64,000 bases of DNA from NCBI GenBank assembly GCA_944332485.1, contig CALVKB010000002.1:11044-75043 (forward strand), written 5' to 3'. Shown here piece by piece: positions 7,007 through 63,660 of this stretch. Both the position numbers and the translations under genes were made by a program. How positions within the stretch are numbered: the first letter of the stretch is position 1; the number at the start of each line of letters is the position of its first letter. The notes under the pieces are model-generated. The model saw nothing but the letters and a program-made list of their open reading frames with translations, ran no database searches and was not told where the DNA came from. The stretch comes from an uncultured Bacilli bacterium. GTDB taxonomy: Bacteria > Bacillota_I > Bacilli_A > RFN20 > CAG-288.

Positions 7007-9920
7007 TTACCTTTCGAGGGGCTTTTTTAGTATTAGATTCACTTGAATCAGATTCATCATTATTCTCTTCTTCTTTGCTCTCTTCTGTATTTTCTTTTTT
7101 ACTTTTATCTTTCTTTTTACGTTTGAAAATGTTTCCTAAATATGGTCTATTTTTCTCGTTATTTTCTCTTTCTAAACGATTTAAATCATCTCTGAATAAA
7201 CTGAAGAAATAATCCAAACCTGTAGTCAATAAAGGCAAAGCGAAGACTAAAACAAAGAACATCAACCATGCAATCTTGTTCATCGTTGTGTAATCAAAAC
7301 CAACTAAGAATGAAGGCAATGTGAATGCACAAACGATTGTGGCTGCTAACATTGTGACAAATAATATCATTCGATAAATATTGAATGGAGTACATTGAAT
7401 GTAAAGCATACTCAATGATACAATCAACAAACCGAAAACTTCCAATGTTCTAACGCAATTATAACCAGTTTCAACACCGCCCAACTCAAAGAATCCGTTA
7501 ATATATAACAAACTGACACAACCGACCATAACCAACATCGCTATAGATCCTGGTAATGCTCTTAGAAGTGTGTTCTTCAAGAAATGACCTTTAATAAGAT
7601 TCTTGTTAGGTTGTAAAGCTAAGAAGAATGATGGAATACCAATTCCAAACACTTCCATCAAAATCAAGTTGCTTGGCTGGAATGGATAACTGACCATTTT
7701 ATTCGCCAAATTGATGATGATTATAAATAATGTCAAGCAAACGGTGAAGATAGTCTTCATCAAGAATAAAGATGAAGATCTTTGAACGTTATTGATAACC
7801 CTTCTACCTTCCTCAACAACTTTTGGCATACTGGCAAAATTACTATCAAGCAAGACTAAATGTGCGACATTTTTTGCTGCATCTGCACCAGCGGCCATAG
7901 CAATTGAACAATCAGAATTCTTCATGGCTAAGATATCATTGACACCATCACCAGTCATGGCAACAGTTTTACCATTTGCCTTAAGTGCTTGAACTAATGC
8001 TGCTTTTTGTTCAGGACTGACACGACCGAACACTGTGTATCTTGTTGCCAATTCCTTAGTTTCTTGAATGGAAACACCTTCCAAAGAAACACACTTATCA
8101 GCATCATTGACTCCACAGTTAGCTGCAATGTTACTAGCAGTATATGGATTATCACCGGAGATGATTTTAACGTCAACACCATTTTCATTAAACCATTTGA
8201 TAGTAGCAGGAGCTTCCTTACGGATATGATCCAACAAAATAAAGATTGCAATTGGTCTTGCAGAACCATCGAAACTTCCATCTTTGATGTAAGCTTCGGA
8301 TTTACAAAGCATCATAACACGATATCCAAGTTTCTGCCTTGTAGCGATCAATTTTTTAATCTCTTCATCATTACCTTTATAAACAAATTCCGGAGCACCT
8401 AATAAATATGTTCCGTTATTTTCAAATGAAACTGCTGAGAACTTTCTAGCACTTGAAAATGGGATGGTACTTATAGCACGGTATGTTGTTTTTAAAGGAT
8501 AATAATTTGCTAAAGCGATACTTGTTTGATTGGATTCCTCAAAGGAAGATAAATAGCTTCCCATGATGTCTTCCATCTTTTTGCTATTATCAAAGATAAC
8601 TACTTCACTAACTTTCATCGTACCATCGGTCAGTGTTCCAGTTTTATCTAAACACAGACAATTTGTACGTGCGAGCATTTCAATACAATATAACTCTTGA
8701 ACTAAGGTTTTTGATTTTGACAATCTTAAAATTCCAGCCGCTAAAGCCATGGAAGTTAAAAGGAACAAACCTGCAGGAATCATACCGACCAAGCTACCAG
8801 CGGTAGATGCGATAGCAACGGCAACCTTTCCAGTTTGACCCCATATTTCAGTGACATTAGCACTGCGGTAATTTATCCAAAATAAGATAATACCGATTGG
8901 AATAATGATTATGGATATAACTTTGATAATTCCGTTCAAACTTTTAACTAACTCACTTTTCGGTTTTGAATATTTTTTTGCTTGTTGTTGCAAAGCGTTG
9001 GCATAACAAAGAGAACCGACTCTTTCAACTTGACATGTACAAGAACCAGAGACAACGAATGATCCAGCTAAAACCATATCACCGACTTTCTTTTTAACAG
9101 CTAAACTTTCACCTGTCAAAAGTGATTCATTAACTTCGATTTGACCAAATTTAACAATTGCATCAGCACCGATTTGATTACCAGTTGAAAGTAACATTAT
9201 GTCATCCAAAACTAATTCTTCAGTTGGGATGTTCAACATTTCACCATCACGGATAACCTTGGCATTAGGTGCTGTAACCAATTTTAATTTATCGATTGTT
9301 TGTTTAGCTCTGACTTCTTGAATAATTCCGATGACAGTATTTGCAATAGCAATAATCATGAAAAAGCAATCTGATATCTTTCCAACAGAAAGCAAAGCGA
9401 CTGCTATTGCAAGCAAAAGAATATTGAAGAATGTGAATACATTCGTATATATAATTTTCCAGTAAGTTTTAGTTCCAGAATTTGGCTGTTTATTTGTTAA
9501 ATCGTCCTTAATTCTTTGTTCAACATCACTTTTCTTCAAGCCTATTTCAATTTCAGGAAGATATCTAACTGCATTTAAAAGCTTATTTTTCTCTTTGTTG
9601 GAAAGTTCCTCTTCACTTTCTTTCTTCTGTTTTTTTCTAGCGTTTTTCTCAAGTTTTCGCAAAACTTTCTCTTCCATCTCAGCTTTATTAGCTGCTAAAG
9701 AATCATCATTTGAATTGATGGTTTTATTTTTAACAGTTTTTGTTTTTGATAAACTACCTTTTTTATTCTTCTCTTTAGCCTCTTTCAAAGCTTTAGCAAT
9801 GTCCTCTTTACTCATAACTTGAGTGGATTTTATTTGACTTTGCTCCTGATTTTTCAAGTTTTGTTTAACTACTTTGACCTCGTTGGTACTTTCAGCAGAA
9901 TTGTTTGTTTTCTCTTCCAT
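6987..9920 (-). CDS. cation-transporting P-type ATPase (P2-type, PacL-like), paralog 1, with a ~150-aa K/E-rich N-terminal extension
   Basis: TGES, CLCLDKTGTLT, MTGDGVNDILAM. It overlaps the downstream paralog by 20 nt. Charged low-complexity tails at both termini. Confidence 0.9.
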   Translation of the reverse strand: MEEKTNNSAESTNEVKVVKQNLKNQEQSQIKSTQVMSKEDIAKALKEAKEKNKKGSLSKTKTVKNKTINSNDDSLAANKAEMEEKVLRKLEKNARKKQKKESEEELSNKEKNKLLNAVRYLPEIEIGLKKSDVEQRIKDDLTNKQPNSGTKTYWKIIYTNVFTFFNILLLAIAVALLSVGKISDCFFMIIAIANTVIGIIQEVRAKQTIDKLKLVTAPNAKVIRDGEMLNIPTEELVLDDIMLLSTGNQIGADAIVKFGQIEVNESLLTGESLAVKKKVGDMVLAGSFVVSGSCTCQVERVGSLCYANALQQQAKKYSKPKSELVKSLNGIIKVISIIIIPIGIILFWINYRSANVTEIWGQTGKVAVAIASTAGSLVGMIPAGLFLLTSMALAAGILRLSKSKTLVQELYCIEMLARTNCLCLDKTGTLTDGTMKVSEVVIFDNSKKMEDIMGSYLSSFEESNQTSIALANYYPLKTTYRAISTIPFSSARKFSAVSFENNGTYLLGAPEFVYKGNDEEIKKLIATRQKLGYRVMMLCKSEAYIKDGSFDGSARPIAIFILLDHIRKEAPATIKWFNENGVDVKIISGDNPYTASNIAANCGVNDADKCVSLEGVSIQETKELATRYTVFGRVSPEQKAALVQALKANGKTVAMTGDGVNDILAMKNSDCSIAMAAGADAAKNVAHLVLLDSNFASMPKVVEEGRRVINNVQRSSSLFLMKTIFTVCLTLFIIIINLANKMVSYPFQPSNLILMEVFGIGIPSFFLALQPNKNLIKGHFLKNTLLRALPGSIAMLVMVGCVSLLYINGFFELGGVETGYNCVRTLEVFGLLIVSLSMLYIQCTPFNIYRMILFVTMLAATIVCAFTLPSFLVGFDYTTMNKIAWLMFFVLVFALPLLTTGLDYFFSLFRDDLNRLERENNEKNRPYLGNIFKRKKKDKSKKENTEESKEEENNDESDSSESNTKKAPRKVNDAVHL

Positions 9921-39729: not shown

Positions 39730-41121
39730 ATGGAAGAAGAAATCAACTCATTGGATCTTATTTGGGAAAATGTAACAAATCACTTGCAGGAAATTTTCGG
39801 ACGTCCATCATACGAAGCATATATTGAAAATATATGCCATCTTATGAAAATTGAGAAAAACAACGCCTATGTTGTTTGTGATCAAAAAGTTTCACTTAAG
39901 ATTCTCTCTCAGGATAGTCAGCTTGATAAATTCAAAAAAGCATTTGAGGAAGCAACTGGAACAAATTACAACGTTTTATTTTATTCTCAAAAAGATTACG
40001 TCAATTTAGACAAAAAGAAAGAGAAGAAAGAAACAAGCAAACCGGATCTTTTTGATCAGTACATCATCAGCCCAAAAGATACTTTTGATACTTTCGTGGT
40101 TGGTCAATCGAATAAACAAGCTTATTTAGCTTGTAATTTGCTTTGCGAAGATAAAGTTACATTTAACCAATTATTCATATATGCCGATTCTGGATTAGGA
40201 AAAACACACTTACTTTCCGCAATTTACAATAAATATAGGGAAGTTCATCCTGATAAGAAGATTAAATACGTTTGTATTAATGATTTTATAGAATTGTACA
40301 TACGATACGTCAGAGAGGAACAGAATAAAACAGGTGATGCAAAAGTAAGTGATATAAAAGATTATTTTGTTGATTTGGATTGTGTTTTATTCGATGATAT
40401 TCAATTTTTAACTGCTAAAAGAAAAACCCAAGAAGTTTTCTTCGATATATTTAACAAATTGCAGATGAGAAATGTCATAGTTGTTATGACATCAGATTGC
40501 TCACCGGATCATATTCAAGATTTAGATAAAAGATTAGTATCAAGATTTTCCTCTGGTTTATCCTGTTTTATCAAGATTCCAGAAAGATCTACAATGATCG
40601 ATATTCTCAAAAAGAAGATTGAACTTAACGGATTAGATATAAACATGTTTCCAGATGAAGTTTTGGATTACATCGCTTCTAAAAATTCCAACAACGTCAG
40701 ATTGTTGGAAGGTGCTTTGAATAGACTATTATTCTTATTAGCTTTACATAAGGATGTAGATAAAGTTGATATGAAATTTGTCCGTATGGCTTTTGAAGAT
40801 AACCGAAGTTACTCCAAAGAGCTTGATCAAGATCATGTTTTGGATGTTGAGGATATCATCTCCGAAGTTGCAAATCAGTTCAATTTGACAATAGGGCAAC
40901 TTAAATCGAAAGTTAGAACCTCACAGATTTCTTACGCACGACAAATCGCTATGTATTTATGCCGAGATCTTTTAAATGAAAGTTTGAACGATATAGGAAG
41001 AGTTTTTGGAAAAGACCATTCCACCGTTTTGGATGCTTGTAAAAAGATAACAAAAAGGATGGAAGAAGATGTCAATTTGAAAAAGACAATCAAGAAGTTG
41101 AAGGATAAATTGAAAAAATAA
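39730..41121 (+). CDS. dnaA: chromosomal replication initiator protein DnaA
   Basis: AAA+ Walker A YADSGLGKTHLL, Walker B VLFDDIQF, sensor and box VII regions, and a C-terminal DNA-binding domain (IAMYLCRDLLNESLNDIGRVFGKDHSTV). Confidence 0.95.
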   Translation: MEEEINSLDLIWENVTNHLQEIFGRPSYEAYIENICHLMKIEKNNAYVVCDQKVSLKILSQDSQLDKFKKAFEEATGTNYNVLFYSQKDYVNLDKKKEKKETSKPDLFDQYIISPKDTFDTFVVGQSNKQAYLACNLLCEDKVTFNQLFIYADSGLGKTHLLSAIYNKYREVHPDKKIKYVCINDFIELYIRYVREEQNKTGDAKVSDIKDYFVDLDCVLFDDIQFLTAKRKTQEVFFDIFNKLQMRNVIVVMTSDCSPDHIQDLDKRLVSRFSSGLSCFIKIPERSTMIDILKKKIELNGLDINMFPDEVLDYIASKNSNNVRLLEGALNRLLFLLALHKDVDKVDMKFVRMAFEDNRSYSKELDQDHVLDVEDIISEVANQFNLTIGQLKSKVRTSQISYARQIAMYLCRDLLNESLNDIGRVFGKDHSTVLDACKKITKRMEEDVNLKKTIKKLKDKLKK

Positions 41122-49577: not shown

Positions 49578-50627
49578 TTAGGTTCGAGCTTGATATAGAG
49601 GTTTATTGTCGTCGTTATCTATATCTTTCATCTTCTTAGCAGCGAAGAAGTATCTAGCGACACAGGCTAATAAGAATATAAAACCAACAATCATTGTTGA
49701 TGGAAGGAAGAAACTGACGATAAAAGCGATGATACCAGGGGTGAATGTGAACATATAACCGACTTTTGTTGCACCCCAGAAAGACATATCTTTGTAAAGT
49801 GATTTTTTACCACGTGATGAGATGAAGAATAAAACGCCAATCACGAAGGAAATTACAAATACACCAACTTCATAGGATATTATACTCACCATGAATGTGT
49901 TCTTCTGAATTGGATAGTAACAATCGTTGAGGAATGTTTGCCAGTTTGCAAAAATTGTTGCATCAGTTATATTAACATCATCTTTAAGGAGGATATTTTT
50001 GAATGTTCCAGTTTTAACAACATCAAAGTATCCTGAAAAATTAGCGACATATTGTGAATCTTTTGTCAGATCGCTAACAGGATATAAGGAAATTTGAATT
50101 GTTGTTGGAGTAATTATCATGTAGGAATATTTTGCAATATCAGTAGTTCCATTATTACCATCAGAAGCTTTGAAGATGCTTTCTGATAAATTCTGATAAC
50201 CTTCTCTACCTTCATTGGTTAAAGGATCAGCATCATAATAAAACACTTTCATGACTTGAACTTCTTTATCTTGTTGTTTTGTTTTAATAGAAATTCCACC
50301 AGTGTATGTTTCTAAATTGTATGTAGCAAGTTCTTTGAATGTTTCACTTGGTACAAAATAATGGTCATCAGATATTGAACTATCTTGAAAACCGTATTCT
50401 GTGTTGGAAACAAGCTGGACTAATGCTGTATCAACACCGGAGGTTGTTCCGATTGCTTGACTTCCTTTGGTGGAAGTGAAGGTGTAATAAGGTGGAATCC
50501 AAACTAAACCTAGCAAAATTACGATGTAAATTAAGGCAAAATACCAAGGTCTTCTATAGTTATTGATACATTCTTTGTTGCTGAACATACCAACGAAAAA
50601 ACTTTTTATTGCTGCTAAAGCTCTCAT
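49578..50627 (-). CDS. hypothetical membrane protein (349 aa) at the head of the dnaX operon
   Basis: N-terminal TM, ~200-aa extracytoplasmic region and C-terminal TM helices; separated from dnaX by 2 nt. Confidence 0.5.
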   Translation of the reverse strand: MRALAAIKSFFVGMFSNKECINNYRRPWYFALIYIVILLGLVWIPPYYTFTSTKGSQAIGTTSGVDTALVQLVSNTEYGFQDSSISDDHYFVPSETFKELATYNLETYTGGISIKTKQQDKEVQVMKVFYYDADPLTNEGREGYQNLSESIFKASDGNNGTTDIAKYSYMIITPTTIQISLYPVSDLTKDSQYVANFSGYFDVVKTGTFKNILLKDDVNITDATIFANWQTFLNDCYYPIQKNTFMVSIISYEVGVFVISFVIGVLFFISSRGKKSLYKDMSFWGATKVGYMFTFTPGIIAFIVSFFLPSTMIVGFIFLLACVARYFFAAKKMKDIDNDDNKPLYQART

Positions 50628-51097: not shown

Positions 51098-51739
51098 ATG
51101 AAACAAAGAAGTACACCACGTTACTTAAAAATTGCTCAAGACATCTGTGGTAAGATCTTAACAGGTCACTACACCGAAGGTCAATTATTAAAAGGTAGAT
51201 CTGTTTTAGGTGCTGAATATGCAGTTAGTCCAGAGACAGTTAGAAAAGCATTAAATATTTTGGAAAAAGAGAAGATCGTCTCTTCAAAAAGAGGTGTTGG
51301 CGTATTCGTAGAATCCGTTTTACATGCTCAACAATTCGCTTCCAGATGGAAGAGTGAAACACAAGTTAAAAACAAATATCAAAACTTGATTACATTATTG
51401 AATTCCAAGAAAGAACTTGATGACAAGATTTTGGCTGCTATTGATGATATGAGAGATTCATTCCAATATCAAACAACTGAAGCAGTTAAATTCTCAGAAG
51501 TTGAAATTCCTGAAGGTTCATGGATTGATGGTAAGAAGATCGGTGAAGTTTATTTCTGGAACTACACTGAAGCAACAATCGTTGCAGTTGTCGGTGCTGA
51601 TGGTATAGCTCAACAATCTCCAGGCCCAGAATTTGAATTACATGTCGGCGACAAATTGTTGTTTGTTGGTAAAGATAAATTGACTTTCGATCGTGTCTTG
51701 TCATTCTTGACATACGGCGTCCTTGAAGGAAACGAGTAG
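51098..51739 (+). CDS. GntR-family HTH regulator fused to a TrkA-C (RCK_C) domain
   Basis: Winged HTH (VSPETVRKALNILEKEKIVSSKRGVGVFV) and C-terminal RCK_C (KIGEV...ATIVAVVGADG...HVGDKLLFVG). Confidence 0.7.
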   Translation: MKQRSTPRYLKIAQDICGKILTGHYTEGQLLKGRSVLGAEYAVSPETVRKALNILEKEKIVSSKRGVGVFVESVLHAQQFASRWKSETQVKNKYQNLITLLNSKKELDDKILAAIDDMRDSFQYQTTEAVKFSEVEIPEGSWIDGKKIGEVYFWNYTEATIVAVVGADGIAQQSPGPEFELHVGDKLLFVGKDKLTFDRVLSFLTYGVLEGNE

Positions 51740-51804: not shown

Positions 51805-52212
51805 TTAATTTTTGATTTCATTAAGAGCGTTTTGAATAATAGCTTTTCTTGTAATGATACCAATAAAATGATCATGGTCATCCAAAACAGGCACGAAGTT
51901 TTGATTTATCGCACACGATAATAAGTTCTCCATTGTTTCAGTGGAGGAGATTGGGACACAATCATGAGAGCGAGGTATATCTAGCAATTGAATTTTTTCA
52001 GCTTCCTGCAAAGCTTTTAAATTTGATTTTTTTATGACTCTCAATATATCACCTTCTGTAATAGTGCCAACGTAATGTCCTTGTTTGTCGAGTATTGGAA
52101 GAGCAGTAAATCCATGATAATCCAATTTTTCCATAACTTGCCGTAAAGTAGAATCGCTTTCAATATAGGCAACTTGTGATTTTGGGAGCAGAAATAAAAG
52201 TATATTGTTCAT
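51805..52212 (-). CDS. CBS-domain pair protein
   Basis: Two CBS motifs (HGFTALPILDKQGHYVGTITEGDIL and NQNFVPVLDDHDHFIGIITRKAII). Confidence 0.7.
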   Translation of the reverse strand: MNNILLFLLPKSQVAYIESDSTLRQVMEKLDYHGFTALPILDKQGHYVGTITEGDILRVIKKSNLKALQEAEKIQLLDIPRSHDCVPISSTETMENLLSCAINQNFVPVLDDHDHFIGIITRKAIIQNALNEIKN

Positions 52213-52486
52213 CTATTTAAACCTCCTTATTTATTATTATAAATCAGAAAATATTTCTTAAAAATAAAATATTAGCAAAATATCGTTTTTCTTTATAAAT
52301 AGAATGGTTTTAACATTTTACAACTTTCATTTTTATAAAAGAATTGTTAAGTTTCAATTTTCAATTTTAATATCAACTTTTTGATTTTTTTAAGTTTTTA
52401 CTTTTATTTAAAATTTCATTTATAAATATATTAAAATAATATAAATCAACATTTTTTTGTGTTGTGCGAATTTAAGGAGACTGACC

Positions 52487-55400
52487 ATGAATGTTAAAAG
52501 CTTGATTAATGAGATGCTTGATTCATCGAATCTTAATAAATTACTTTACGTTCAACTTGGAAGAAACGACACATGTGCATGTTATACAAATTATTCAAAC
52601 CTATTTTATGACTTGCTGCATGGTAAACAGATTAAGATAAAACCTCTTTTTTCTTTCAATAAGGAAGATATATCGTATGAGAACGATTTACTCGATCGTG
52701 GAAATTTGAAGGATAAACAATTCTTTTTCAAGGAAGATTTGAAACAACTTGAGAAGATAGTTGATATTTCAAAAATATATTCTGAAAAAGCACTCTTTTT
52801 GCTTTGCAAGACAAATATCGCAAAGCAGATCATTGAAGATTTGACAAATCTTCCTCAAGTTTATGTCTCTTTTGTAAATTTGAGATATTATTCTGTCAAT
52901 TCTCAAGAAAACTTGATAGGTCAGTTGCTTTTCTTAAAATGTAAAGTCTTGAAACAAGGAGACGATTATGTTTTGAAAGGTGTCTCTTCCGATGTTGTTT
53001 TCAATACGACTTTATTAAATGAGATTCGAGAAGAACATAACATCGACTTAACTTATGATTATCATGATTTTGTTCTAAATAACTATGTTAAATTTGTCAA
53101 TGATAAAGTCAGTCCGTTGTTGATGAGTTGCACTTGTGATATTTTTGTAAATTCAGTCAATGTAGGTTTACAAAATTTGATTAATGCTCGTTCTGAAGTT
53201 TTGAATGATAATTTGGATAATTTATCAAATAATTTGAAAGCTATCAATGAGCACATAGATATCGATGAAAAATATGATTTTGAGAAAGAGGACTTTGGTT
53301 ATGGTGGTCCTCTTACTGTTCCTTATAAAGAGATGCGCGCAAATCTTGATAAATATGGCATTGTTAAATTGAACATTGACGATAAAAGCTTTGGCAAAGA
53401 AATTCTCAAACGTTTTAATCAGGAGATTGTTAGCAAAAAGAATTCAGTTTTATATATAGAACCTAATGAAGCTCAAGCTAAACAGCGCAGAGATGAATTT
53501 TTGCAAGAAGGTTTCAAAGGCCTTTTGAGTGAAGATAGTATCGATTCTTGCGAGATAAATTTGGTTGATTCATTTAAAAAAGCAGTAGAAATAAATCATG
53601 AAACATACTTGACAAAACAAGAGGAACAAACTTTAACTTCCTTCCTTGATTTGAAGAACAAATACATAGAAAGTAAAACAAAGGAAAGAGCCAAACTTGA
53701 TTTCCATTTAGGTGACTCTTATTTGGTTACAACAAATAAAGCTAGTTATTATTATTTGAAAAGTGATAAAATTTTCGATTTAGAAATTGAACAATATACT
53801 GATGATGATTATGCCATGGATCAAGTTTTCATCTCCAATTTGAAAAATTATGGCAAATTTATCAATACTCCATTGAAAGATAATCCGTTTTATGGTGTAA
53901 CAACTGATCTAAGCGAAAATAATTTTGCAGAGATCAAGAAAAACTGTGCAAATTTGAAGATAAAGATTGATGCTTTGAAAGAGTATATCGCAGTTGAGAA
54001 TATTGCCAGCTTCGGTTTTGGAAATGCAAATTCTATAACTGAAGTTAAAAACATCATCGATGCTTTGTATGTTTTGATCAAATATAACGGTTTTGATCTT
54101 AGATTTTTCGATATAGCTTCAAATCCTTTAACAAAATTGAAGATTGATGAGTTAGCTGAATTACAGGAACATTTGTTAGATAAAAGAAATGAACTTCAGG
54201 AATTTTTCAAAGACAAATCATTCTTGCTGGATAATGATGTTGCAACCTTGTACAACCAAATAAAGGATAAAACAAAACAGAAACGTTCAGCTAAGAAACA
54301 AATTAAAAAAGCTTTAGTGAGAAAATTCGGTGTTTTCAAGAAAGTTTACAAAATGCTTCCTGAATATATCGAATGCGATAATGAGTTTAGAAAACAATTG
54401 CCAGATTTCGAAGAGGTATTCGGTTATACCATCTATGATGTAGATGGCGTAAGTAAGATTCAACAATATATAGATTATGCTAATGAATTTATCAGTATGA
54501 AGAATACATTTGCTGATTGTGAAAATGTCAATTTTAATTCCGAATTTTTCACAAAATTCTTCACAGACCCTGAGTATCGTAGCACTGTTCGTATCGATTT
54601 ACTTCCACGATTAGAATCTTTGTATTCAGAAGTTTCTGAACAGTTCAATAGTTACAGCTTGTTATTTGATTCTGATGAACTTATCACTATGAAATTTGAA
54701 AAAGTTCTCAAGTTGATCGATAAGAAACTTAATGCAAGTTATCAAGAGTTTGTAATATACAGACAGTATATGAACGAAATTGAACACACATCTGATGTTT
54801 TCAAACAATTCCATAAAATGTTTGTTGATAAATACTTGCCGATGACAAGTATCGAGAATGATTACTTCGCATCTTTATTCAAAGGTTTATCCAATAAAGT
54901 TTATGAAGAATTGGATTTGTCAAATGAGGAGAATATCTATTTGAAATCCGATTATATCAAGCAACTTTATTTGAATAAGGATCTTTTGAACCGTTATGAT
55001 GTGATGAAGGTCACTGATTATAGAACTTCAATTTTGAATTCAGAATTATTTAAGGAGAGATTGAAGAGTTTGAAATACACATATCACTATAATCAAATTC
55101 CAAATATCGAGAAGATTGTCACTGCTTTGGATAGCTTTTACAACAGTGTTTTACCAATAACAGTTGAAACTATCGATAAAGTGCACTATTTCTCCAAATT
55201 GAATTTTGACTATTTAATCGTTGATAATAGTTCACAATTTAGTGATCAAGAATTGTTACTTTTGTTAACTTTGAATCCAAATAGCAAGATTGTCATATTA
55301 AGTTACAGTGAGACTCCAGAAATTCGTCTTAATCTTTACCCATTGGTGAGAGTCAATTTTGAATCGATACTTGGAATCCCTTATTCATATGACAAATTAT

Positions 55401-56281
55401 TCGCGTCATTTGCTAACCAAGTGGAACTTGTCAGCAACAAACATGGTTTTGAAGTTAATAACAATACCGCAAGTTTGGATCCTTTAAGTCCACCATTGGC
55501 TTTGTATAATCCTGGAATTAACAAAGTATCGCACCTATTGCTTCCTGATTGTTTATATGAAATTGATGATGTTGAAAATGTCGAATACAGTTTGAGAAGA
55601 TTTTTGTTAGATACATACAATTCAACATTGTTTGTTATCAATTCCTTGTTGATTGTTTACGAAAATCAAAAAGCTTTCAATTTAACACTTAGAGCTTATG
55701 ACCAATATTTGCAAAAGATTAAAGTTGAAGTCAAAGATGTTGAGAACCAACCAAGTGACGATTTGAAGAGTCAAGGTAGCAAGAATGAATATGAACAAAG
55801 ATTAGCTTTGTTGCAAACATGTTTCAAACTCTATCCGAAGGATGATGAAATTAATGAATTGCTTTCAAATGAAAAATATGTCGAATTACTCGGAAGAATA
55901 GTCCCATGTCATATCAGCAGCATTGAAAGACTCAACGATAGAAAATTGAATGAAGAGATCACAAAATATCTCAAATCCAATCTTTTGAGAATCAAAGATG
56001 ATATGGTTTACTTCACAGAATATGAGAGAAATGAATTCAAGTTATCATCCAACAGAACTTTATCTGATATTGATTTAAGTGAATTTGTGAATTTCATAAG
56101 AGTTTATATATCCAACTTCACATTTATCAAATGTTCCGATTTAAGAAAGATATTAGCTACAGCAGTTAATTTAGATGAAACCATGGAATCATTTATCGAG
56201 AAGTACAATCAAGCTCTCAATTACCTTGTTAGACATAGATATTGTGAACTTAATGGTGATAATATTGTATTGAAAAGATAA
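52487..56281 (+). CDS. very large orphan cytoplasmic protein (1264 aa), function unknown
   Basis: The start is taken at the ATG preceded by AAGGAG, since the track begins at a TTG. No Walker A/B, nuclease or repeat motif was recognised. One helicase-motif-II-like string (DYLIVDNSSQ) occurs without a P-loop. Confidence 0.6.
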   Translation: MNVKSLINEMLDSSNLNKLLYVQLGRNDTCACYTNYSNLFYDLLHGKQIKIKPLFSFNKEDISYENDLLDRGNLKDKQFFFKEDLKQLEKIVDISKIYSEKALFLLCKTNIAKQIIEDLTNLPQVYVSFVNLRYYSVNSQENLIGQLLFLKCKVLKQGDDYVLKGVSSDVVFNTTLLNEIREEHNIDLTYDYHDFVLNNYVKFVNDKVSPLLMSCTCDIFVNSVNVGLQNLINARSEVLNDNLDNLSNNLKAINEHIDIDEKYDFEKEDFGYGGPLTVPYKEMRANLDKYGIVKLNIDDKSFGKEILKRFNQEIVSKKNSVLYIEPNEAQAKQRRDEFLQEGFKGLLSEDSIDSCEINLVDSFKKAVEINHETYLTKQEEQTLTSFLDLKNKYIESKTKERAKLDFHLGDSYLVTTNKASYYYLKSDKIFDLEIEQYTDDDYAMDQVFISNLKNYGKFINTPLKDNPFYGVTTDLSENNFAEIKKNCANLKIKIDALKEYIAVENIASFGFGNANSITEVKNIIDALYVLIKYNGFDLRFFDIASNPLTKLKIDELAELQEHLLDKRNELQEFFKDKSFLLDNDVATLYNQIKDKTKQKRSAKKQIKKALVRKFGVFKKVYKMLPEYIECDNEFRKQLPDFEEVFGYTIYDVDGVSKIQQYIDYANEFISMKNTFADCENVNFNSEFFTKFFTDPEYRSTVRIDLLPRLESLYSEVSEQFNSYSLLFDSDELITMKFEKVLKLIDKKLNASYQEFVIYRQYMNEIEHTSDVFKQFHKMFVDKYLPMTSIENDYFASLFKGLSNKVYEELDLSNEENIYLKSDYIKQLYLNKDLLNRYDVMKVTDYRTSILNSELFKERLKSLKYTYHYNQIPNIEKIVTALDSFYNSVLPITVETIDKVHYFSKLNFDYLIVDNSSQFSDQELLLLLTLNPNSKIVILSYSETPEIRLNLYPLVRVNFESILGIPYSYDKLFASFANQVELVSNKHGFEVNNNTASLDPLSPPLALYNPGINKVSHLLLPDCLYEIDDVENVEYSLRRFLLDTYNSTLFVINSLLIVYENQKAFNLTLRAYDQYLQKIKVEVKDVENQPSDDLKSQGSKNEYEQRLALLQTCFKLYPKDDEINELLSNEKYVELLGRIVPCHISSIERLNDRKLNEEITKYLKSNLLRIKDDMVYFTEYERNEFKLSSNRTLSDIDLSEFVNFIRVYISNFTFIKCSDLRKILATAVNLDETMESFIEKYNQALNYLVRHRYCELNGDNIVLKR

Positions 56282-56309
56282 TAAAAAAATAGCAAAGTTC
56301 AACACTTTG

Positions 56310-56678
56310 CTATTTTTTATTGACGAAACTATCAATTTTATAATCTATATTTTTCGCTTGTTGTTCACTGAAGTAATAGATAGGATTCAGTTTGTATTTC
56401 CCTAACAAGCAGAATATGATATCAAGGATGTTCCAAACAACACCGATTATGATTATTGAGCAGATAAGTTTACAAATAAACCAGAAGACACTTTCTTTGC
56501 TGGCTCTGCCAAAATACAATTTATCTAATCCGAGATAACCAACAAAGATACATAGTAACAAAAGGATAAATGTGTTAGGAATTTTACTTAATTTGTCATT
56601 ATCTTGTGAGCCATCAACGAATGTTTGATCGCTCAAAGCTGGTTCTTCAGATATTTCTTCTTCATTATTTTCAATCAT
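56310..56678 (-). CDS. TM2-domain small membrane protein (122 aa)
   Basis: CIFVGYLGLDKLYFGRASK matches the TM2 GxxGxxRFYLG-type motif between two helices; acidic N-terminal tail. Confidence 0.6.
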   Translation of the reverse strand: MIENNEEEISEEPALSDQTFVDGSQDNDKLSKIPNTFILLLLCIFVGYLGLDKLYFGRASKESVFWFICKLICSIIIIGVVWNILDIIFCLLGKYKLNPIYYFSEQQAKNIDYKIDSFVNKK

Positions 56679-56680
56679 AT

Positions 56681-56926
56681 TTATTCGAAATAATCTCTAA
56701 AATCAAATTTATATTTACATCTTAAGATCATTATTAAATCGATAATGTTGTAAAAGATACCGACAATAATAAGAAAAGACAAAAATTTAATAAGAGCAAA
56801 TTTCCAGGTTTTCTTCCATGTTTTTGCATAATAGAATTTGTCCATGCCAAACCAACCGAAGAATAAACAAATGAAAAATAAGCCAAGATCTATTTTAGGT
56901 TTTTCCAATGTTTGAATTTCTGCCAT
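56681..56926 (-). CDS. TM2-domain small membrane protein (81 aa), tandem paralog
   Basis: CLFFGWFGMDKFYYAKTWKK TM2 motif; C-terminal NIIDLIMILRCKYKFD parallels NILDIIFCLLGKYKLN in its neighbour. Confidence 0.6.
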   Translation of the reverse strand: MAEIQTLEKPKIDLGLFFICLFFGWFGMDKFYYAKTWKKTWKFALIKFLSFLIIVGIFYNIIDLIMILRCKYKFDFRDYFE

Positions 56927-57049: not shown

Positions 57050-57418
57050 TTAATTTATTTTTTTAACCCAAAGTCCATGCAAATTGCAGTGCTCGTAGAC
57101 ATTTTGAACTGTTTCATTTGCACCGACTGTGAATTTTGCTTTAGGTTCTTCGTTAGGTGAAAGTTTTCTAACATAGACAGATTTATCAGTTTCAACGACG
57201 ATCAAATCAATCAAGTGAGCTTCGGTCATCGGATGCAAAACCTCACCTACAACAACGCTTACTTCACAACCTTCGATGTGAACTACAGGAACATGTTTTT
57301 CAACTGCAGCATCAGTTGTGTTTGCTTTTACTTCTGTTAAGGAAGTGACATCAACTTCATTTAATGAAGCTAAAGCGTGGATGCCATTATTTTTATCTTT
57401 ATAAAATTTTAAACTCAT
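57050..57418 (-). CDS. superoxide reductase (1Fe-SOR / neelaredoxin type) with a ~38-aa N-terminal extension
   Basis: Signature EKHVPV, HPMTEAH and C-terminal YEHCNLHGLW (four His plus one Cys iron ligands). Confidence 0.85.
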   Translation of the reverse strand: MSLKFYKDKNNGIHALASLNEVDVTSLTEVKANTTDAAVEKHVPVVHIEGCEVSVVVGEVLHPMTEAHLIDLIVVETDKSVYVRKLSPNEEPKAKFTVGANETVQNVYEHCNLHGLWVKKIN

Positions 57419-57971: not shown

Positions 57972-59678
57972 ATGAAAAACGGTGATTCTAATTCAGATGT
58001 TTTCTCATTGAAGGTCTATAAAGGAAAGACACGATTTGTGTCCTACTTTAAAAACACAATAATGCCAACACTGATTTATGGATTTTTTATCGGTGTTGTT
58101 GTCGGCGTTGTTGTATTTGGCTTTAATTTAATGGCAGAATTTTTGGTGGAACAATCAAAAGAAATTTATTTTTATGTTTCACAACATTTACAATATTTGC
58201 CAGTTTTATTATTAGGTTTAGCAGTTCTTGGTTTCTTTTCTTATTTGATTGCTAAACTTGTCCCTGACTCACAAGGATCCGGTATTCCATATACTGAGGG
58301 AGTTATGCAGGGTAAAATTAAGTTCCAACCAACAGAGATGGCAGGTGCAATCTCCTCAAGTGCTTATTTGACTTTTGCCGGTGGTTTACCATTAGGTGGT
58401 GAAGGACCAAGTGTTACACTCGGTGGTGTTTTAGGACTTTTTGTCAATCGTGTTGGACAGAAAGCTTTCAAACGTGGTAAAGAATATGAAAGAATGTCAG
58501 TAACTAGTGGTGCAAGTGCTGGTTTAGCCGTTGCTTTTAATGCTCCATTGACAGGAATTTTATTTTCCTTAGAAGAAGGTAGTAAGAAGATATCAGCTCC
58601 TATTGTTTTGTCTTGTTGCACAACTGTTATGTTTGCAACTTTAACTTCAAGTGTTTTAAACTTCTTCGTTTCTGGTGAGTTTAGACCTTTGTATTTCAAT
58701 GCTATAGGTGAAACAATGACCGGTATCGACATTCAATATATTTGGATGATGCTTATTTTGGGTATTGTCATAGGATTATGTGCAGCTGGTTTTAGTTATT
58801 TTCAAAGATTTTTTAGAAAGTTTTTCAAAAAAACTAAAATGCCATTGTGGTTAAGAATCATTTTAAGTTTCCTTTTGATCGGTGTTGTTGGTGTATTTGT
58901 TCCTGAAGTTATCGGAGGTGGTGGCAATATAATCACTATGATTGCGACAAATTACACATCACCAGAACAAATTGCAACTTGGTTTATATTGGTTATTTTA
59001 ATTTTGAGACTTGTAATTATCGGATTTTCATCTAACTCTGGATTAACAGGTGGTTTGTTTGTCCCTATGTTATGCTTGGGTGCATTGATTGGCGGATTAT
59101 TAGGTAATTTATTCATTTTGATGGGATTACCTGAAGAATCATATTCAACTGTGGTTGCTATAAGTATGGCTGCATTTATGGGTGCAGTATCAAGAGCACC
59201 TTTGACAGCTATTGTTTTGATTGTTGAAGTTACCGGTGAAGTTTCCTTAGGTTTATTGATGATGATTTTTGTTATCGTTATCAGCTATATGACAATTGAA
59301 TTAACTCATATTATTCCATTCTATGATGAATTACTTGAAGGTATTGAAGAGAGAAAATATCACAACAAGAAATTGCAAAAATTTGATCTTCTTATGAATA
59401 TAGATGAAGATTCATTTGTTGCTGGCAGAGAAATTAGAGATATCATTTGGCCATATGGTGTTTCTGTCACAAAGATTTATTCAACGAACAACGATAATCA
59501 ATTAGTTTATGAAGTCCCTGAAGGTGGACGAAGAGTTTTATATCCAGGTGATGCTATCTTGGTTAGTTGTAAAACCTACGATGATGATGAAACTTTCGAC
59601 GATTTAATCGCGATTTGTAGCTCAAGAAAACTGTACGATTATAAATTCGCGGATATTAATAAGTATTTGCTTCTATAG
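57972..59678 (+). CDS. ClC-family chloride channel / H+-Cl- antiporter with a C-terminal TrkA-C (RCK_C) domain
   Basis: Selectivity-filter motifs DSQGSGIP, GKEGP-like GGEGPS and GGLFVPML; C-terminal RCK_C (VAGREIRDIIWPYGVSV...LYPGDAILV). RBS GGAGG. Confidence 0.85.
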   Translation: MKNGDSNSDVFSLKVYKGKTRFVSYFKNTIMPTLIYGFFIGVVVGVVVFGFNLMAEFLVEQSKEIYFYVSQHLQYLPVLLLGLAVLGFFSYLIAKLVPDSQGSGIPYTEGVMQGKIKFQPTEMAGAISSSAYLTFAGGLPLGGEGPSVTLGGVLGLFVNRVGQKAFKRGKEYERMSVTSGASAGLAVAFNAPLTGILFSLEEGSKKISAPIVLSCCTTVMFATLTSSVLNFFVSGEFRPLYFNAIGETMTGIDIQYIWMMLILGIVIGLCAAGFSYFQRFFRKFFKKTKMPLWLRIILSFLLIGVVGVFVPEVIGGGGNIITMIATNYTSPEQIATWFILVILILRLVIIGFSSNSGLTGGLFVPMLCLGALIGGLLGNLFILMGLPEESYSTVVAISMAAFMGAVSRAPLTAIVLIVEVTGEVSLGLLMMIFVIVISYMTIELTHIIPFYDELLEGIEERKYHNKKLQKFDLLMNIDEDSFVAGREIRDIIWPYGVSVTKIYSTNNDNQLVYEVPEGGRRVLYPGDAILVSCKTYDDDETFDDLIAICSSRKLYDYKFADINKYLLL

Positions 59679-59683
59679 TTAAA

Positions 59684-59730
59684 AAGACTTTGGTTGTATT
59701 GATATAAATCAATCTCCAAAGTCTTTTTTA
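59684..59730. terminator. bidirectional terminator hairpin (AAGACTTTGG ... CCAAAGTCTT + T-run)
   Basis: 10-bp inverted repeat with a ~22-nt loop, flanked by AAAAA and TTTTTT; sits between the ClC stop and the convergent minus-strand gene. Confidence 0.6.
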
Positions 59731-60530
59731 TCATTTAATGAAATAAAAGATAAAGCTGTGCTCATATGATTGTTAACAAGCTTTATCAATAGAAGCAAAC
59801 AAACACTTATCAATATGAAAAACTCTTTTTCTAATCCATCACATTCGTTATTTAAGTCTATTTTAGCTACACCTAAATAATTGTTCTTAGTTTGATGAAA
59901 ATAAGAGATCTTGGCTTTAACTTGATCTAATGCGAATTCGTTTTTGTTTTCTAACTTTAAGAAATAACTCTTATCAAAAAATAATATGTCTTCGTTTTGA
60001 ATGTACATAGCATAATTTGAATTGTTGTTTTCAAATGTAATTTGCTCATCATCGTTCATTGATATGGAAGCATAAACATTGTTGTTTTTGTCTTTTATAG
60101 TCGCTTTAGCTTTTAAAAAATGGGAGATTGATATTGAAAAATTTTCGAATATTTTGTTGTTTGCAAATGAGTAATTTTTATCAAGATTAAGAGACTTAAT
60201 AAGAAATGTTTTAGGATTACCGCTGATGATATTGTTGATATAGACGGAATTTTCAAATGTTGAATTAATAGTTGTCTTGTTATTTGTAATGTCTAATTTA
60301 AGTTTTTGAAAACATTTTTTAGCTTTTAAAACTTTTTTAAATTTGTTGATTAAAAATGATTCTTCATTCAGAAATATGAAAGCTTCACGAACATTATTTA
60401 TCAAGATTATCTTATTTAAAATAGCATCCTGTATTTGCTTAACAGTTTCAACATCATTTATATTCAAATCTAATTTGTTCAACAAATCGATTATTTTTAA
60501 AACAGATTTCTTAGTCATAATATTTACCAA
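59709..60530 (-). CDS. hypothetical protein (273 aa) with a C-terminal hydrophobic anchor
   Basis: Intact ORF, Asn/Lys-rich, with a C-terminal helix FFILISVCLLLLIKLV. Confidence 0.45.
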   Translation of the reverse strand: MVNIMTKKSVLKIIDLLNKLDLNINDVETVKQIQDAILNKIILINNVREAFIFLNEESFLINKFKKVLKAKKCFQKLKLDITNNKTTINSTFENSVYINNIISGNPKTFLIKSLNLDKNYSFANNKIFENFSISISHFLKAKATIKDKNNNVYASISMNDDEQITFENNNSNYAMYIQNEDILFFDKSYFLKLENKNEFALDQVKAKISYFHQTKNNYLGVAKIDLNNECDGLEKEFFILISVCLLLLIKLVNNHMSTALSFISLNDKKDFGD

Positions 60531-61045: not shown

Positions 61046-61390
61046 ATGATAAAAAAATTTCGTCTTTGTAAACAAACAGATTTTCAGAATACCATCAAAG
61101 GTAAAACAAGAATGAAAACCGATTCATTCTCGATAATTTTAAATAAAAATAAACAAAATAAATCCGCTCGTTATGGGATATCCGTAAGCAAGAAACTTGG
61201 AAATGCCGTTGTGAGAAACAGAGTGAAAAGACAAGTGAGAAGCATGATCGGTGAGATTGATTTATTCAAAGAGAAGATCGATGTGATAATTGTTATCAAA
61301 GACGGTTATTTTTCTAAAACATATTTTCAAAACAAAGATATTTTGGAAAATATGTTGAAGCAAACTATTACAAGAGAGGTAAAAAGATGA
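61046..61390 (+). CDS. rnpA: ribonuclease P protein component
   Basis: Basic RNR-like motif VVRNRVKRQVR; located between rpmH and yidC. Confidence 0.9.
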   Translation: MIKKFRLCKQTDFQNTIKGKTRMKTDSFSIILNKNKQNKSARYGISVSKKLGNAVVRNRVKRQVRSMIGEIDLFKEKIDVIIVIKDGYFSKTYFQNKDILENMLKQTITREVKR

Positions 61391-62898
61391 GTCGTACTAC
61401 TAAAAAAATTGCGGTTTTCTCAAGTTTTATCTTTTCTACTGCATTAGTTACATCATGTAGTTTAACTAAACCTTTTTGCTCAAATTTTGATAAAACTCAG
61501 CAAATGTATACCTATTACACTGAGAATGTCGTTAAAAGTACCAAAAATGATGATGGAATTTATGAGATAGAATTTGATGATAATAACCACACTTCTTTCA
61601 GTGACACATTCGTTAATAGTGTAAAAGAATCAAACTTATTTTTACCAAGTGTAGAATTCACCAATTTTATCGATGACAAAGTTGAAGCTTATATTCAAGT
61701 TGATTCAAATTTCAATGAGAGCGTTTTGAATTTGGCATCTGAACATGAGAATGCAATACTCGTTGATAAAGTAAAAAGATCATTAGCATTGTTCGGAGGA
61801 TTTGAAGAGGATCCAAACGAACAGGTTTTGTGGCTTAATTTTAACGGTTGGGTTGATGAATTTGCAACTTTGCACAAGGATAATTTAACCTTAGTTCCTA
61901 GTACAGGATATATAAATTACTTTCAAACACAAATCAATAACGGTGTCAGTCAAATGCAAGCATGTTTGACTCCAACCGATGGTATTTTCAATATGGGTAA
62001 TACCTATATTGAAGGTAAAACCTGGGGACAAGCATTCACTGAATATGGTCCGTTGGAAGGTTTGTTAGTTTATCCAACAGGAATTATGTTGCACTATTTT
62101 GCAACTTGGATGGGTAACACTGGAATCGGTCAAGTTTTCGCTATATTGTTCGTTACTATCATAGTTAGATTGATCATCGTTGTATTCTCTATTTTCTCCA
62201 CTAAGAGTCAAAATAGAATGACAGAATTACAACCAGAAATTGCCGCTTTGCAACAAAAATATCCAAATTCTGACAACGATAAAGAACAAAAAGCAGCATT
62301 GAGCCGTGAAACGATGAATTTGTATAAGAAGAACGGAGTCCATCCATTCTTATCAATTCTCATTTTGATCATTCAGTTCCCAATCTTCATCTCGGTTTGG
62401 TCGGCTATGCAAGGCTCCGCTATCTTAACTGATGGTAGTGTTTTAGGTCTAAGCTTAACGACAACTATCAGTCAAGGTATCACAAGTTTGAGTTCAGCAA
62501 CACCATTAGCTGTGATTCTATTTATAATTTTGTGTATATCGCAATTTATATCTACAAGATTACCTGCTTGGTTCCAGACTTGGCAAACAGAGAAATTTGT
62601 CCGTGTAACTGTTCAAACTGACTCCGGTCAAAAGAGCAGGAAGATGATGAATTATGTCAGCTATTTCATGATTGTATTCATCTGTTTCATGGGCTTCACT
62701 TTGCCATCAGCGATGGCTATGTATTGGTTCTTCGGTTCACTTATCTCTATCGCTCAAACCATAATCACTCAATATGCCATGAAGCGTAGAAGAAGACGTG
62801 GTGGTAAAGGTGGTGATGGTTCAACATTAGCAAGTCAAAGAAGAAGTAAAAATCACACAACAAAAACAAAGACGAAGTCAATTCGTTCAAGTCGATAG
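61387..62898 (+). CDS. yidC: membrane protein insertase YidC (lipoprotein-type, with a basic C-terminal tail)
   Basis: Lipobox ALVTSCSL, large extracytoplasmic N-domain, five C-terminal TM helices and tail KRRRRRGGKGG; ATGA overlap with rnpA. Confidence 0.9.
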   Translation: MSRTTKKIAVFSSFIFSTALVTSCSLTKPFCSNFDKTQQMYTYYTENVVKSTKNDDGIYEIEFDDNNHTSFSDTFVNSVKESNLFLPSVEFTNFIDDKVEAYIQVDSNFNESVLNLASEHENAILVDKVKRSLALFGGFEEDPNEQVLWLNFNGWVDEFATLHKDNLTLVPSTGYINYFQTQINNGVSQMQACLTPTDGIFNMGNTYIEGKTWGQAFTEYGPLEGLLVYPTGIMLHYFATWMGNTGIGQVFAILFVTIIVRLIIVVFSIFSTKSQNRMTELQPEIAALQQKYPNSDNDKEQKAALSRETMNLYKKNGVHPFLSILILIIQFPIFISVWSAMQGSAILTDGSVLGLSLTTTISQGITSLSSATPLAVILFIILCISQFISTRLPAWFQTWQTEKFVRVTVQTDSGQKSRKMMNYVSYFMIVFICFMGFTLPSAMAMYWFFGSLISIAQTIITQYAMKRRRRRGGKGGDGSTLASQRRSKNHTTKTKTKSIRSSR

Positions 62899-62913
62899 AA
62901 AGGTGGAAGTAAA

Positions 62914-63660
62914 ATGAGAGAATTTGAAGGTCAATCTGAGCAAGAATGTTTGAAATTAGCCTCAGAAGCATATAAACTTCCTGTTGAGAAGATAAATTAC
63001 ACCGTTTTGAAGGATGTAACTACTGGTGGATTTTTCAAAAAAACACACTTGGTAGTTATCGGTTGTCCTGATATTCAAGATTTGTTTTACGATGTTTCTA
63101 AATATATATCTTTCATATTGGAAAACATCGGTGTTACAACAACTCCAACTTACACTTATGAATTCAATCCTGAGACTGATATTGTTGTTTTCAGAATTTC
63201 AATTGATGATCGTCAAGATAAGAAATTATCAAGTAAAGTTATCGGATTCCAAGGACGAACTCTCAATGCCATCAATGTTTTATTGAGATTATTTATTCAC
63301 AATAAATACAATCATTCTTATCGTATTTTGTTGGATTGCAACAATTACAAACAACGTAAATATGAACAATTCACCCACTTAGCTTACAGCATCGGTAATG
63401 AAGTTAAAAAAACTCGCAAAGATGTCGAGTTAACTCCGATGACCAGCGATGAAAGAAGAATCATTCACAACATTATCGCAAAGATAAATTACTGTGAATC
63501 TGAATCAATTGGTGCTGGTAAATCAAGACATATTGTTATTAAATACAATCCTAATAAAATTGTTAAAAGAACTAAGTTCAATAAGAATGCAGCATTGGAA
63601 GATATAATATCCGCCGAGGAAATTCACTCAGAATCTGAGGAAGTTGAAGCAGAGAAGTAA
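62914..63660 (+). CDS. khpB: RNA-binding protein KhpB/Jag (KH + R3H)
   Basis: Jag_N, KH-like domain and C-terminal R3H (MTSDERRIIHNIIA); canonical position after yidC. Confidence 0.85.
   Translation: MREFEGQSEQECLKLASEAYKLPVEKINYTVLKDVTTGGFFKKTHLVVIGCPDIQDLFYDVSKYISFILENIGVTTTPTYTYEFNPETDIVVFRISIDDRQDKKLSSKVIGFQGRTLNAINVLLRLFIHNKYNHSYRILLDCNNYKQRKYEQFTHLAYSIGNEVKKTRKDVELTPMTSDERRIIHNIIAKINYCESESIGAGKSRHIVIKYNPNKIVKRTKFNKNAALEDIISAEEIHSESEEVEAEK

Follow-up and report, generated by a model that had tools for sequence, protein, structure and literature searches.

The window analysed here is the whole 64,000-nucleotide stretch of contig CALVKB010000002.1 (positions 11,044 to 75,043, assembly GCA_944332485.1) from an uncultured Bacilli bacterium of the GTDB lineage CAG-288, and the subject is a gene in it that encodes a 1264-residue protein, called here the big protein, together with two small membrane protein genes that lie beside it. 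The initial annotation, which was made from the sequence alone, had described this gene as the largest in the window, with a strong ribosome-binding site and a 275-bp AT-rich upstream region. These points hold: the next longest entries in the list of open reading frames (ORFs) have 977 and 827 residues, a ribosome-binding site can be read directly from the sequence, and the upstream region was measured at 274 bp. The features at the locus, in positions of the window, are as follows.

52213 to 52486, no strand: AT-rich divergent intergenic region of 274 bp between a CBS-pair gene (reverse strand) and the big gene (forward strand)
52474 to 52479, forward strand: ribosome-binding site AAGGAG, 7 nucleotides before the ATG
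52487 to 56281, forward strand: coding sequence of the big protein, a putative DUF4011-derived pseudo-helicase, identified as an ORF with its translation (ATG start, 1264 codons plus stop)
56284 to 56318, no strand: inverted repeat with a 15-bp stem, found in a terminator scan between the convergent stops of the big gene and the 122-residue gene
56310 to 56678, reverse strand: gene for a 122-residue TM2-like paralogue with an N-terminal extension (Pfam TM2 E 1.3e-3, 19.3 bits against a gathering threshold of 27.9)
56681 to 56926, reverse strand: gene for an 81-residue TM2-like two-helix membrane protein (Pfam TM2 E 3.4e-4, 21.2 bits against the same threshold)

The guanine plus cytosine (GC) content of the intergenic region is 16.8%, whereas the window as a whole has 30.5% and the coding sequence of the big gene 30.3%. 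The region presumably carries the promoters of both the CBS-pair gene and the big gene; a search of it for promoter-like hexamers gave an enrichment too low to assign a promoter. The inverted repeat is flanked by runs of A and T, overlaps the final codons of the 122-residue gene, and from its sequence looks like a bidirectional terminator.

A motif scan of the big protein found no GxxxxGK[ST], no GK[ST] anywhere in the chain, and no hhhhD[DE], DEAD/H, HExxH, or CxxC motif. This is in agreement with the initial annotation, which had seen no P-loop, Walker B, or HEXXH signature and no repeats, and tandem repeats were likewise not found. The protein contains no tryptophan and is net acidic overall. 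Its top 19-residue hydrophobic window falls below the threshold for a transmembrane segment. There is a single strongly basic patch, at residues 595–620. No Pfam match was found for the big protein at E ≤ 0.1, and nothing significant was found in PADLOC, PHROGs, or the PDB sequences. Searches of the PDB sequences with phmmer or with profiles, using the whole protein, the family profile, the spliced first RecA domain, domain X, and the C-terminal domain (the domains are described below), also gave nothing usable, and a YokA recombinase match (E 0.003) and a Csm2 match (E 0.056) among the PDB sequences were judged to be due to chance or composition.

The initial annotation regarded the big protein as an orphan, a view that was overturned by an exhaustive HMMER search of 1.84 billion representative sequences. 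This search identified 63 representatives at E ≤ 1e-3, of which 50 are at E ≤ 1e-10. About 58 of the 63 are full length, with 940–1283 residues and 15–40% identity to the big protein. A word-indexed search recovered a single 98%-identical cluster of 21 members from metagenome assemblies, and repeating it with a 59-sequence family alignment as the query again returned just the near-identical cluster; the AT-rich, low-complexity composition of the sequence probably saturates the candidate list of this type of search. The same 59-sequence alignment was used for the conservation profile. It revealed three invariant residues, Tyr437, Asp445, and Ser769, and eight that are near-invariant, Asn173, Tyr533, Gly535, Phe536, Phe541, Leu556, Ser796, and Pro890. 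Conservation peaks in a helical insert (about residues 420–810) and in both halves of a RecA-like domain.

The descent of this family from DUF4011 helicases is revealed by profile matches at the N-terminus. Residues 7–189 of the big protein match positions 364–546 of the NCBIfam model NF058533, "anti-phage protein ProA", with E 3.5e-6 and 24.7 bits; this stretch of the model corresponds to DUF4011. The model is an equivalog of 1903 positions with a curated cutoff of 1500 bits. Among 41 full-length relatives, 15 match Pfam DUF4011 (PF13195) with a best E of 1.2e-9 and 21 match ProA with a best E of 5e-19; additionally, relative P0083 carries a precomputed PF13195 match. On the strength of the N-terminal ProA match and the PF13195 matches of its relatives, the sequence places the big protein in DUF4011 by homology through its family. 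In relative P0087, residues 415–931 align with ProA positions 797–1336 (E 2.2e-9), and thus the long central region and the motif II strand are collinear with a canonical DUF4011 helicase. Against ProA the window protein scores 24.7 bits and its relatives reach 67.3 bits at best, far below the 1500-bit cutoff, so the full ProA architecture is lacking. No matches to AAA_11, AAA_12, or nuclease families were found among the 41 relatives, and a tblastn search of plasmids with a DUF4011-positive N-terminus, aimed at a canonical helicase, gave no match. The big gene is retained as a single chromosomal gene within a clade of uncultured low-GC Bacilli.

The domain layout was determined from the alignment and from an AlphaFold2 model of residues 255–1264, which was computed with the family alignment as input and has a mean predicted local distance difference test score (pLDDT) of 89.3 and a predicted template modelling score (pTM) of 0.65. 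The domains and motifs along the coding sequence, all on the forward strand, are as follows.

52487 to 53236: N-terminal DUF4011-like domain, about residues 1–250
53342 to 53521: N-terminal half of the RecA-like domain, residues 286–345, with strand IVKLNI, a degenerate Walker A loop, a helix, and strand VLYIE
53375 to 53401: loop IDDKSFGKE at the Walker A position, residues 297–305, without GxxxxGK[ST] (alignment and motif scan)
53522 to 55141: all-helical insert inside the RecA-like domain, about 540 residues, residues 346–885 (model helices at model residues 105–634)
54269 to 54346: basic patch with a net charge of +12, residues 595–620, from a charge scan; family consensus AKKxLxxxLKxK
55142 to 55360: C-terminal half of the RecA-like domain, residues 886–958 (four model strands and the alignment)
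55205 to 55237: degenerate motif II (Walker B strand) FDYLIVDNSSQ, residues 907–917, from the alignment; the strand is at model residues 655–658
55361 to 55747: alpha/beta domain X, residues 959–1087, about 130 residues with 3–4 strands (model residues 719–833), found in all members
55781 to 56278: C-terminal domain, residues 1099–1264 (model residues 845–1010), present in about 40% of members

In the model, a strand-helix-strand-helix unit with strands at residues 292–297 (IVKLNI) and 321–325 (VLYIE) is completed into one alpha/beta domain by strands at residues 891–895, 909–912 (YLIV), 934–939, and 953–956 (model residues 637–641, 655–658, 680–685, and 699–702). The big protein has the RecA-like fold of domain 1A, split by the helical insert. 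The insert, which includes several helices of 30–35 residues, is the best-conserved part of the family and holds all three invariant residues and, except for Asn173 and Pro890, the near-invariant ones. No structure reached E ≤ 1e-3 in a whole-chain Foldseek search of the PDB, which returned just short local matches to XPB. Domain X may be a remnant of the second RecA domain (RecA2) or of a nuclease-like domain. It has no match in Pfam, NCBIfam, or the PDB sequences, and 25 domain X sequences searched against Pfam and the PDB sequences gave none even at E ≤ 10. A Vsr, DUF559, or MTES-type nuclease identity for domain X was dropped because no search supported it; the "PD" of the LLLPD motif is not kept in all subgroups. 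A short, low-confidence linker in the model separates domain X from the C-terminal domain. The latter is predicted to consist of two winged-helix-like units, judging by the order of helices and hairpins assigned by DSSP, and has no convincing match in Pfam or the PDB sequences. A proposed resemblance of the C-terminal consensus to DUF3320 was discarded after 19 C-terminal domains gave no DUF3320 match at E ≤ 1; the last 260–325 residues of nine members matched neither ProA nor any other NCBIfam model, even at E ≤ 10.

The catalytic motifs of the helicase are lost across the family. The initial annotation had noted that the string DYLIVDNSSQ resembles a helicase motif II in a protein that lacks a Walker A motif, and both halves of that observation are substantiated. 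The string sits on the conserved Walker B strand, where the members of the family share the consensus FDxVI and vary in the residues after it. Asp908 is nearly invariant, and the acidic DE pair of motif II is missing throughout the family alignment. GK[ST] does not follow the first RecA strand in any of the 59 aligned members. A full second RecA domain (2A, with motifs IV–VI) is absent as well: only the domain of about 130 residues follows domain 1A, and AAA_12 is matched by 0 of the 41 relatives. Translocation by helicases of superfamilies 1 and 2 (SF1 and SF2) is driven by an ATP site between two such domains. A protein with no P-loop, no acidic motif II, and no second RecA domain cannot form this inter-domain site, which makes binding or scaffolding without enzymatic activity the most likely role of the big protein.

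A comparison with better known proteins shows what the family shares with helicases and what it lacks. The N-terminal DUF4011 domain and a Walker B strand of the form FDxVI(D) are shared with canonical DUF4011 SF1 helicases, and the RecA-like domain 1 split by a long helical insert is shared with the ProA profile, collinear over positions 373–590 and 797–1336. The canonical proteins, however, have about 1500–1900 residues, and the big protein is about 300–650 residues shorter. What the family lacks in comparison is the Walker A motif, the DE of motif II, and a complete second RecA domain; AAA_11 and AAA_12 are not matched, and neither an MTES_1575/DUF559 nuclease nor a DUF3320 domain is detectable. 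The Upf1-like SF1B helicases of solved structure (Upf1, Senataxin/Sen1, ZNFX1, RecD2, and Dna2) are two-RecA-domain, ATP-driven translocases in which motifs I–VI are intact. In the window protein the ATP site is gone, and SF2 helicases score equally well. A canonical DUF4011 member, Mbov_0647 of M. bovis (183 kDa), has been annotated with MTES_1575, DUF4011, DEXXQc_SF1, DNA2, and AAA_11 (PMC8249566). In P. aeruginosa the canonical DUF4011 gene belongs to the chromosomal core and has a small conserved neighbour gene (bioRxiv 10.1101/2022.11.11.516204).

The big gene is functional, vertically inherited, and under purifying selection. A comparison with the 98%-identical allele at locus L001 gave a synonymous rate (dS) of 0.186, a nonsynonymous rate (dN) of 0.011, and a dN/dS of 0.059, and the GC content, both overall and at third codon positions, is that of dnaX and yidC. 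The gene lies in conserved origin-proximal housekeeping synteny. Upstream of it the window has the order dnaA, prfA, holB, tmk, recR, dnaX, a gene for a 349-residue protein, a GntR/TrkA_C regulator, and the CBS-pair gene; after it come the two TM2-like genes, desulfoferrodoxin, a ClC channel, rnpA, yidC, and jag. The initial annotation had proposed that conservation and neighbourhood be checked in relatives, and the same gene order is found around the relatives at L003 (40% identical) and L002 (25% identical, from a metagenome-assembled genome labelled "uncultured Bacillales bacterium"). Orthologues of the neighbouring genes share 38–87% identity between the window and L002, whereas the big proteins share just 25%. 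Two of the neighbours recur often at the relatives' loci.

51805 to 52212, reverse strand: gene for a CBS-pair protein, CbpB-like (Pfam CBS E 1.4e-18; NCBIfam CbpB E 6e-21, below cutoff)
57050 to 57418, reverse strand: desulfoferrodoxin-type gene (Pfam E 3.2e-16)

The CBS-pair gene adjoins the big gene in L002, L003, L005, and L013, with a divergent orientation in several relatives, and is nearby in L009 and L011, and desulfoferrodoxin is also present in L002, L003, L009–L011, L013, L014, and L016.

The most persistent companion of the big gene is the gene for the TM2-like protein. The initial annotation had mentioned small membrane proteins beside the big gene, and these are the two TM2-like genes on the reverse strand. 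They resemble TM2 proteins (PF05154, of the B. subtilis YozV type) in having two hydrophobic helices, a short loop, and a conserved G-x-D-K-F/L-Y motif, and differ in that both fall short of the gathering threshold set by Pfam. In the alignment the common form, of 77–87 residues, shows the two helices and the GxDK(F/L)Y loop. PF05154 matches have been precomputed for some orthologues, and in one source the copy is annotated as "TM2 domain-containing membrane protein YozV". The 122-residue copy is longer at both ends, with an acidic extension of about 40 residues at the N-terminus and a tail at the C-terminus. A tandem pair is also found in L002 and L013, and other relatives have the copy of about 80 residues alone.

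A TM2-like gene lies at most two genes from the big gene in all ten informative loci, that is, those with enough sequence (the window, L002, L003, L005, L007/L008, L009/L010, L011, L013, L014, and L015). This proximity persists while the orientation of the TM2 gene varies. In L011 the big gene, a 38-nucleotide gap, TM2, a 19-nucleotide gap, and desulfoferrodoxin follow one another on one strand like an operon. In L009/L010 the order is TM2, desulfoferrodoxin, and then the large gene, convergent, and in L013 it is desulfoferrodoxin, TM2, TM2, and then the large gene, again convergent. L005 encodes a short form of 1005 residues in the order mnmE, CBS, big gene, TM2, rpmH, and L007/L008 has a different context, pth-mfd-tilS ... 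Sua5, big gene, TM2, DUF3137, LemA. In L015 a DedA-type gene stands between the big gene and TM2. The subgroup of P0065 and P0074 has a DedA/VTT-domain membrane protein encoded directly downstream on the same strand (L015 4067–4996, L006 3841–4668). A reverse search that started from the small protein recovered 11 clusters at 49–99% identity, and all three of the loci examined contain a large gene without a Pfam match; the large genes of L011 and L013 are members of the family (hhalign E 3e-105; BLASTP 1e-93). The TM2-like orthologues are 49–76% identical and are far better conserved than the big protein.

These results make it probable that the big protein descends from a DUF4011/Upf1-like SF1 helicase, or helicase-nuclease, has lost catalytic activity and part of the domains, and serves as a binder or scaffold together with the TM2 protein. 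The big protein would act without enzymatic activity, and its working surface would be the helical insert with Tyr437, Asp445, Ser769, and the basic helix at residues 595–620. The persistent adjacency suggests a partnership with the small TM2 membrane protein, with which the big protein most likely works, possibly at the membrane. The initial annotation had offered a pseudo-helicase or scaffold role as a possibility. The pseudo-helicase part now has homology, fold, and motif loss behind it and has gained a specific origin among the DUF4011 helicases, and the scaffold role is a deduction from these. Since desulfoferrodoxin and the CBS-pair gene are frequent, though not constant, companions as well, the linkage of the big gene with TM2 may in part reflect an arrangement of genes that was inherited. 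The literature search found no description of a DUF4011 subfamily without motifs and RecA2 or of its TM2 partner, and no described link of TM2 proteins with helicase-like proteins; what is already known is that some of the relatives would receive the Pfam label "DUF4011 domain-containing protein".

The main rival holds that the pair is a functioning module against phages or stress, in which a ProA-like defence helicase has given rise to a sensor that works without ATP and is coupled to a membrane-damaging TM2 effector, as in abortive infection. This is unlikely, although it has several points in its favour: ProA is the only named family with significant similarity, the big protein diverges faster than its syntenic neighbours (25% compared to 38–87% identity), and a big cytoplasmic protein with a small membrane protein at a conserved adjacent position is a common layout of such systems. 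However, similarity scores of 24.7–67 bits are far under the ProA cutoff, and neither a defence-island location nor a match in the PADLOC database was found (a match to AbiEii at E 0.05 was noise, and the neighbours have none). The site is housekeeping synteny instead of a variable island and the composition is host-like. The TM2 partner is highly conserved (49–76% identity), the within-lineage dN/dS of the big gene is 0.06, and the TM2 gene is mostly convergent. Additionally, a scan of viral contigs found no relatives of the big protein, and a source publication for ProA was not found in the literature. Equally doubtful is a variant in which the pair goes back to a ProA-like anti-phage helicase, is now fixed in the core genome, and through rewiring lets a motor-less sensor signal to the small membrane protein. 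If this were true, a whole clade of uncultured low-GC Bacilli would keep an ATP-independent surveillance or stress module, and the fast divergence beside slow neighbours would reflect conflict with phages or other invaders.

Somewhat less probable still is a structural role at the chromosome or replication origin, with the membrane partner tethering DNA or a replication or repair complex, so that the position of the locus would be meaningful. The gene does lie among dnaA, holB, tmk, recR, dnaX, and rnpA-yidC-jag, as do its relatives in L002, L003, L005, and L013, and the helicase descent and the winged-helix-like C-terminal units of the long forms also count in its favour. Other members, however, are located in unrelated housekeeping surroundings, near pth-mfd-tilS (L007) or near rpmE, metG, and pyrG (L009, L011, L014), the big protein is net acidic, and about 60% of members lack the winged-helix-like end. 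A still-active NTPase or helicase with an unconventional nucleotide site is very improbable. The retained RecA-like fold and the nearly invariant Asp908 of the FDxVI strand speak for it, but the P-loop is found in 0 of 59 members, no catalytic acidic pair follows the Walker B strand, there is no full second RecA domain, and the invariant positions include no residue of the arginine-finger type. The notion of a functionless, decaying relic or a mis-called ORF has the missing catalytic motifs and the very low identity between genera on its side and was nonetheless rejected as scarcely credible, since dN/dS is 0.059 at a dS of 0.19, all relatives have uninterrupted ORFs of 940–1283 residues, invariant residues exist, and the structure is predicted at high confidence.

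Several other genes of the window were also characterized. The GntR/TrkA_C gene (51098–51739, forward strand) encodes a fusion of a GntR-type helix-turn-helix with TrkA_C (RCK_C), aligns along its entire length with PDB 7b5t and 7wjg (E 2.5e-21), and is the best conserved of the block, with 87% identity between the window and L002. The two PDB entries are BusR-type repressors that respond to cyclic di-AMP. The ClC channel (57972–59678, forward strand) has a weak C-terminal TrkA_C match (E 0.021). The CBS pair (51805–52212), the RCK_C part of the GntR/TrkA_C protein, and the weakly matched TrkA_C region of the ClC channel belong to domain types known as cyclic di-AMP receptors in other Firmicutes, and a link of the neighbourhood to cyclic di-AMP signalling is speculative. 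The gene for the 349-residue protein (49578–50627, reverse strand) lies directly upstream of dnaX in the same orientation and has no match in Pfam, NCBIfam, or the PDB sequences; it is kept in synteny, with 388 residues in L002 (38% identity) and 365 residues in L003. A 273-residue ORF between the ClC gene and rnpA (59709–60530, reverse strand) has no family match and is missing at L002 and L003. The DnaA-type gene (39730–41121, forward strand) and rnpA-yidC-jag (61046–63660, forward strand) are separated by about 20 kb that include holB-tmk-recR-dnaX, and the cumulative GC skew climbs steadily across 44–64 kb of the window. A search for RNA genes in the window found a sole tRNA-Lys at 331–406 and no rRNA or riboswitch. 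The second-largest ORF (977 residues, 6987–9920, reverse strand) encodes a P-type cation ATPase that is closest to the Listeria Ca2+-ATPase LMCA1 (E 2.4e-58).

DUF4011 helicases are widespread and are core genes in some species, yet they are essentially uncharacterised. The family described here shows what selection keeps after the motor and the nuclease have been lost, namely the DUF4011 domain and, above all, the helical insert, and their retention indicates that they form a functional core that probably binds a ligand or a partner. To our knowledge, no function has been established for TM2-domain proteins, which occur from bacteria to humans. The family leaves one "giant orphan" fewer among the unexplained genes of these uncultured Bacilli, and tying a TM2 family to a specific conserved partner provides a testable hypothesis for both families.

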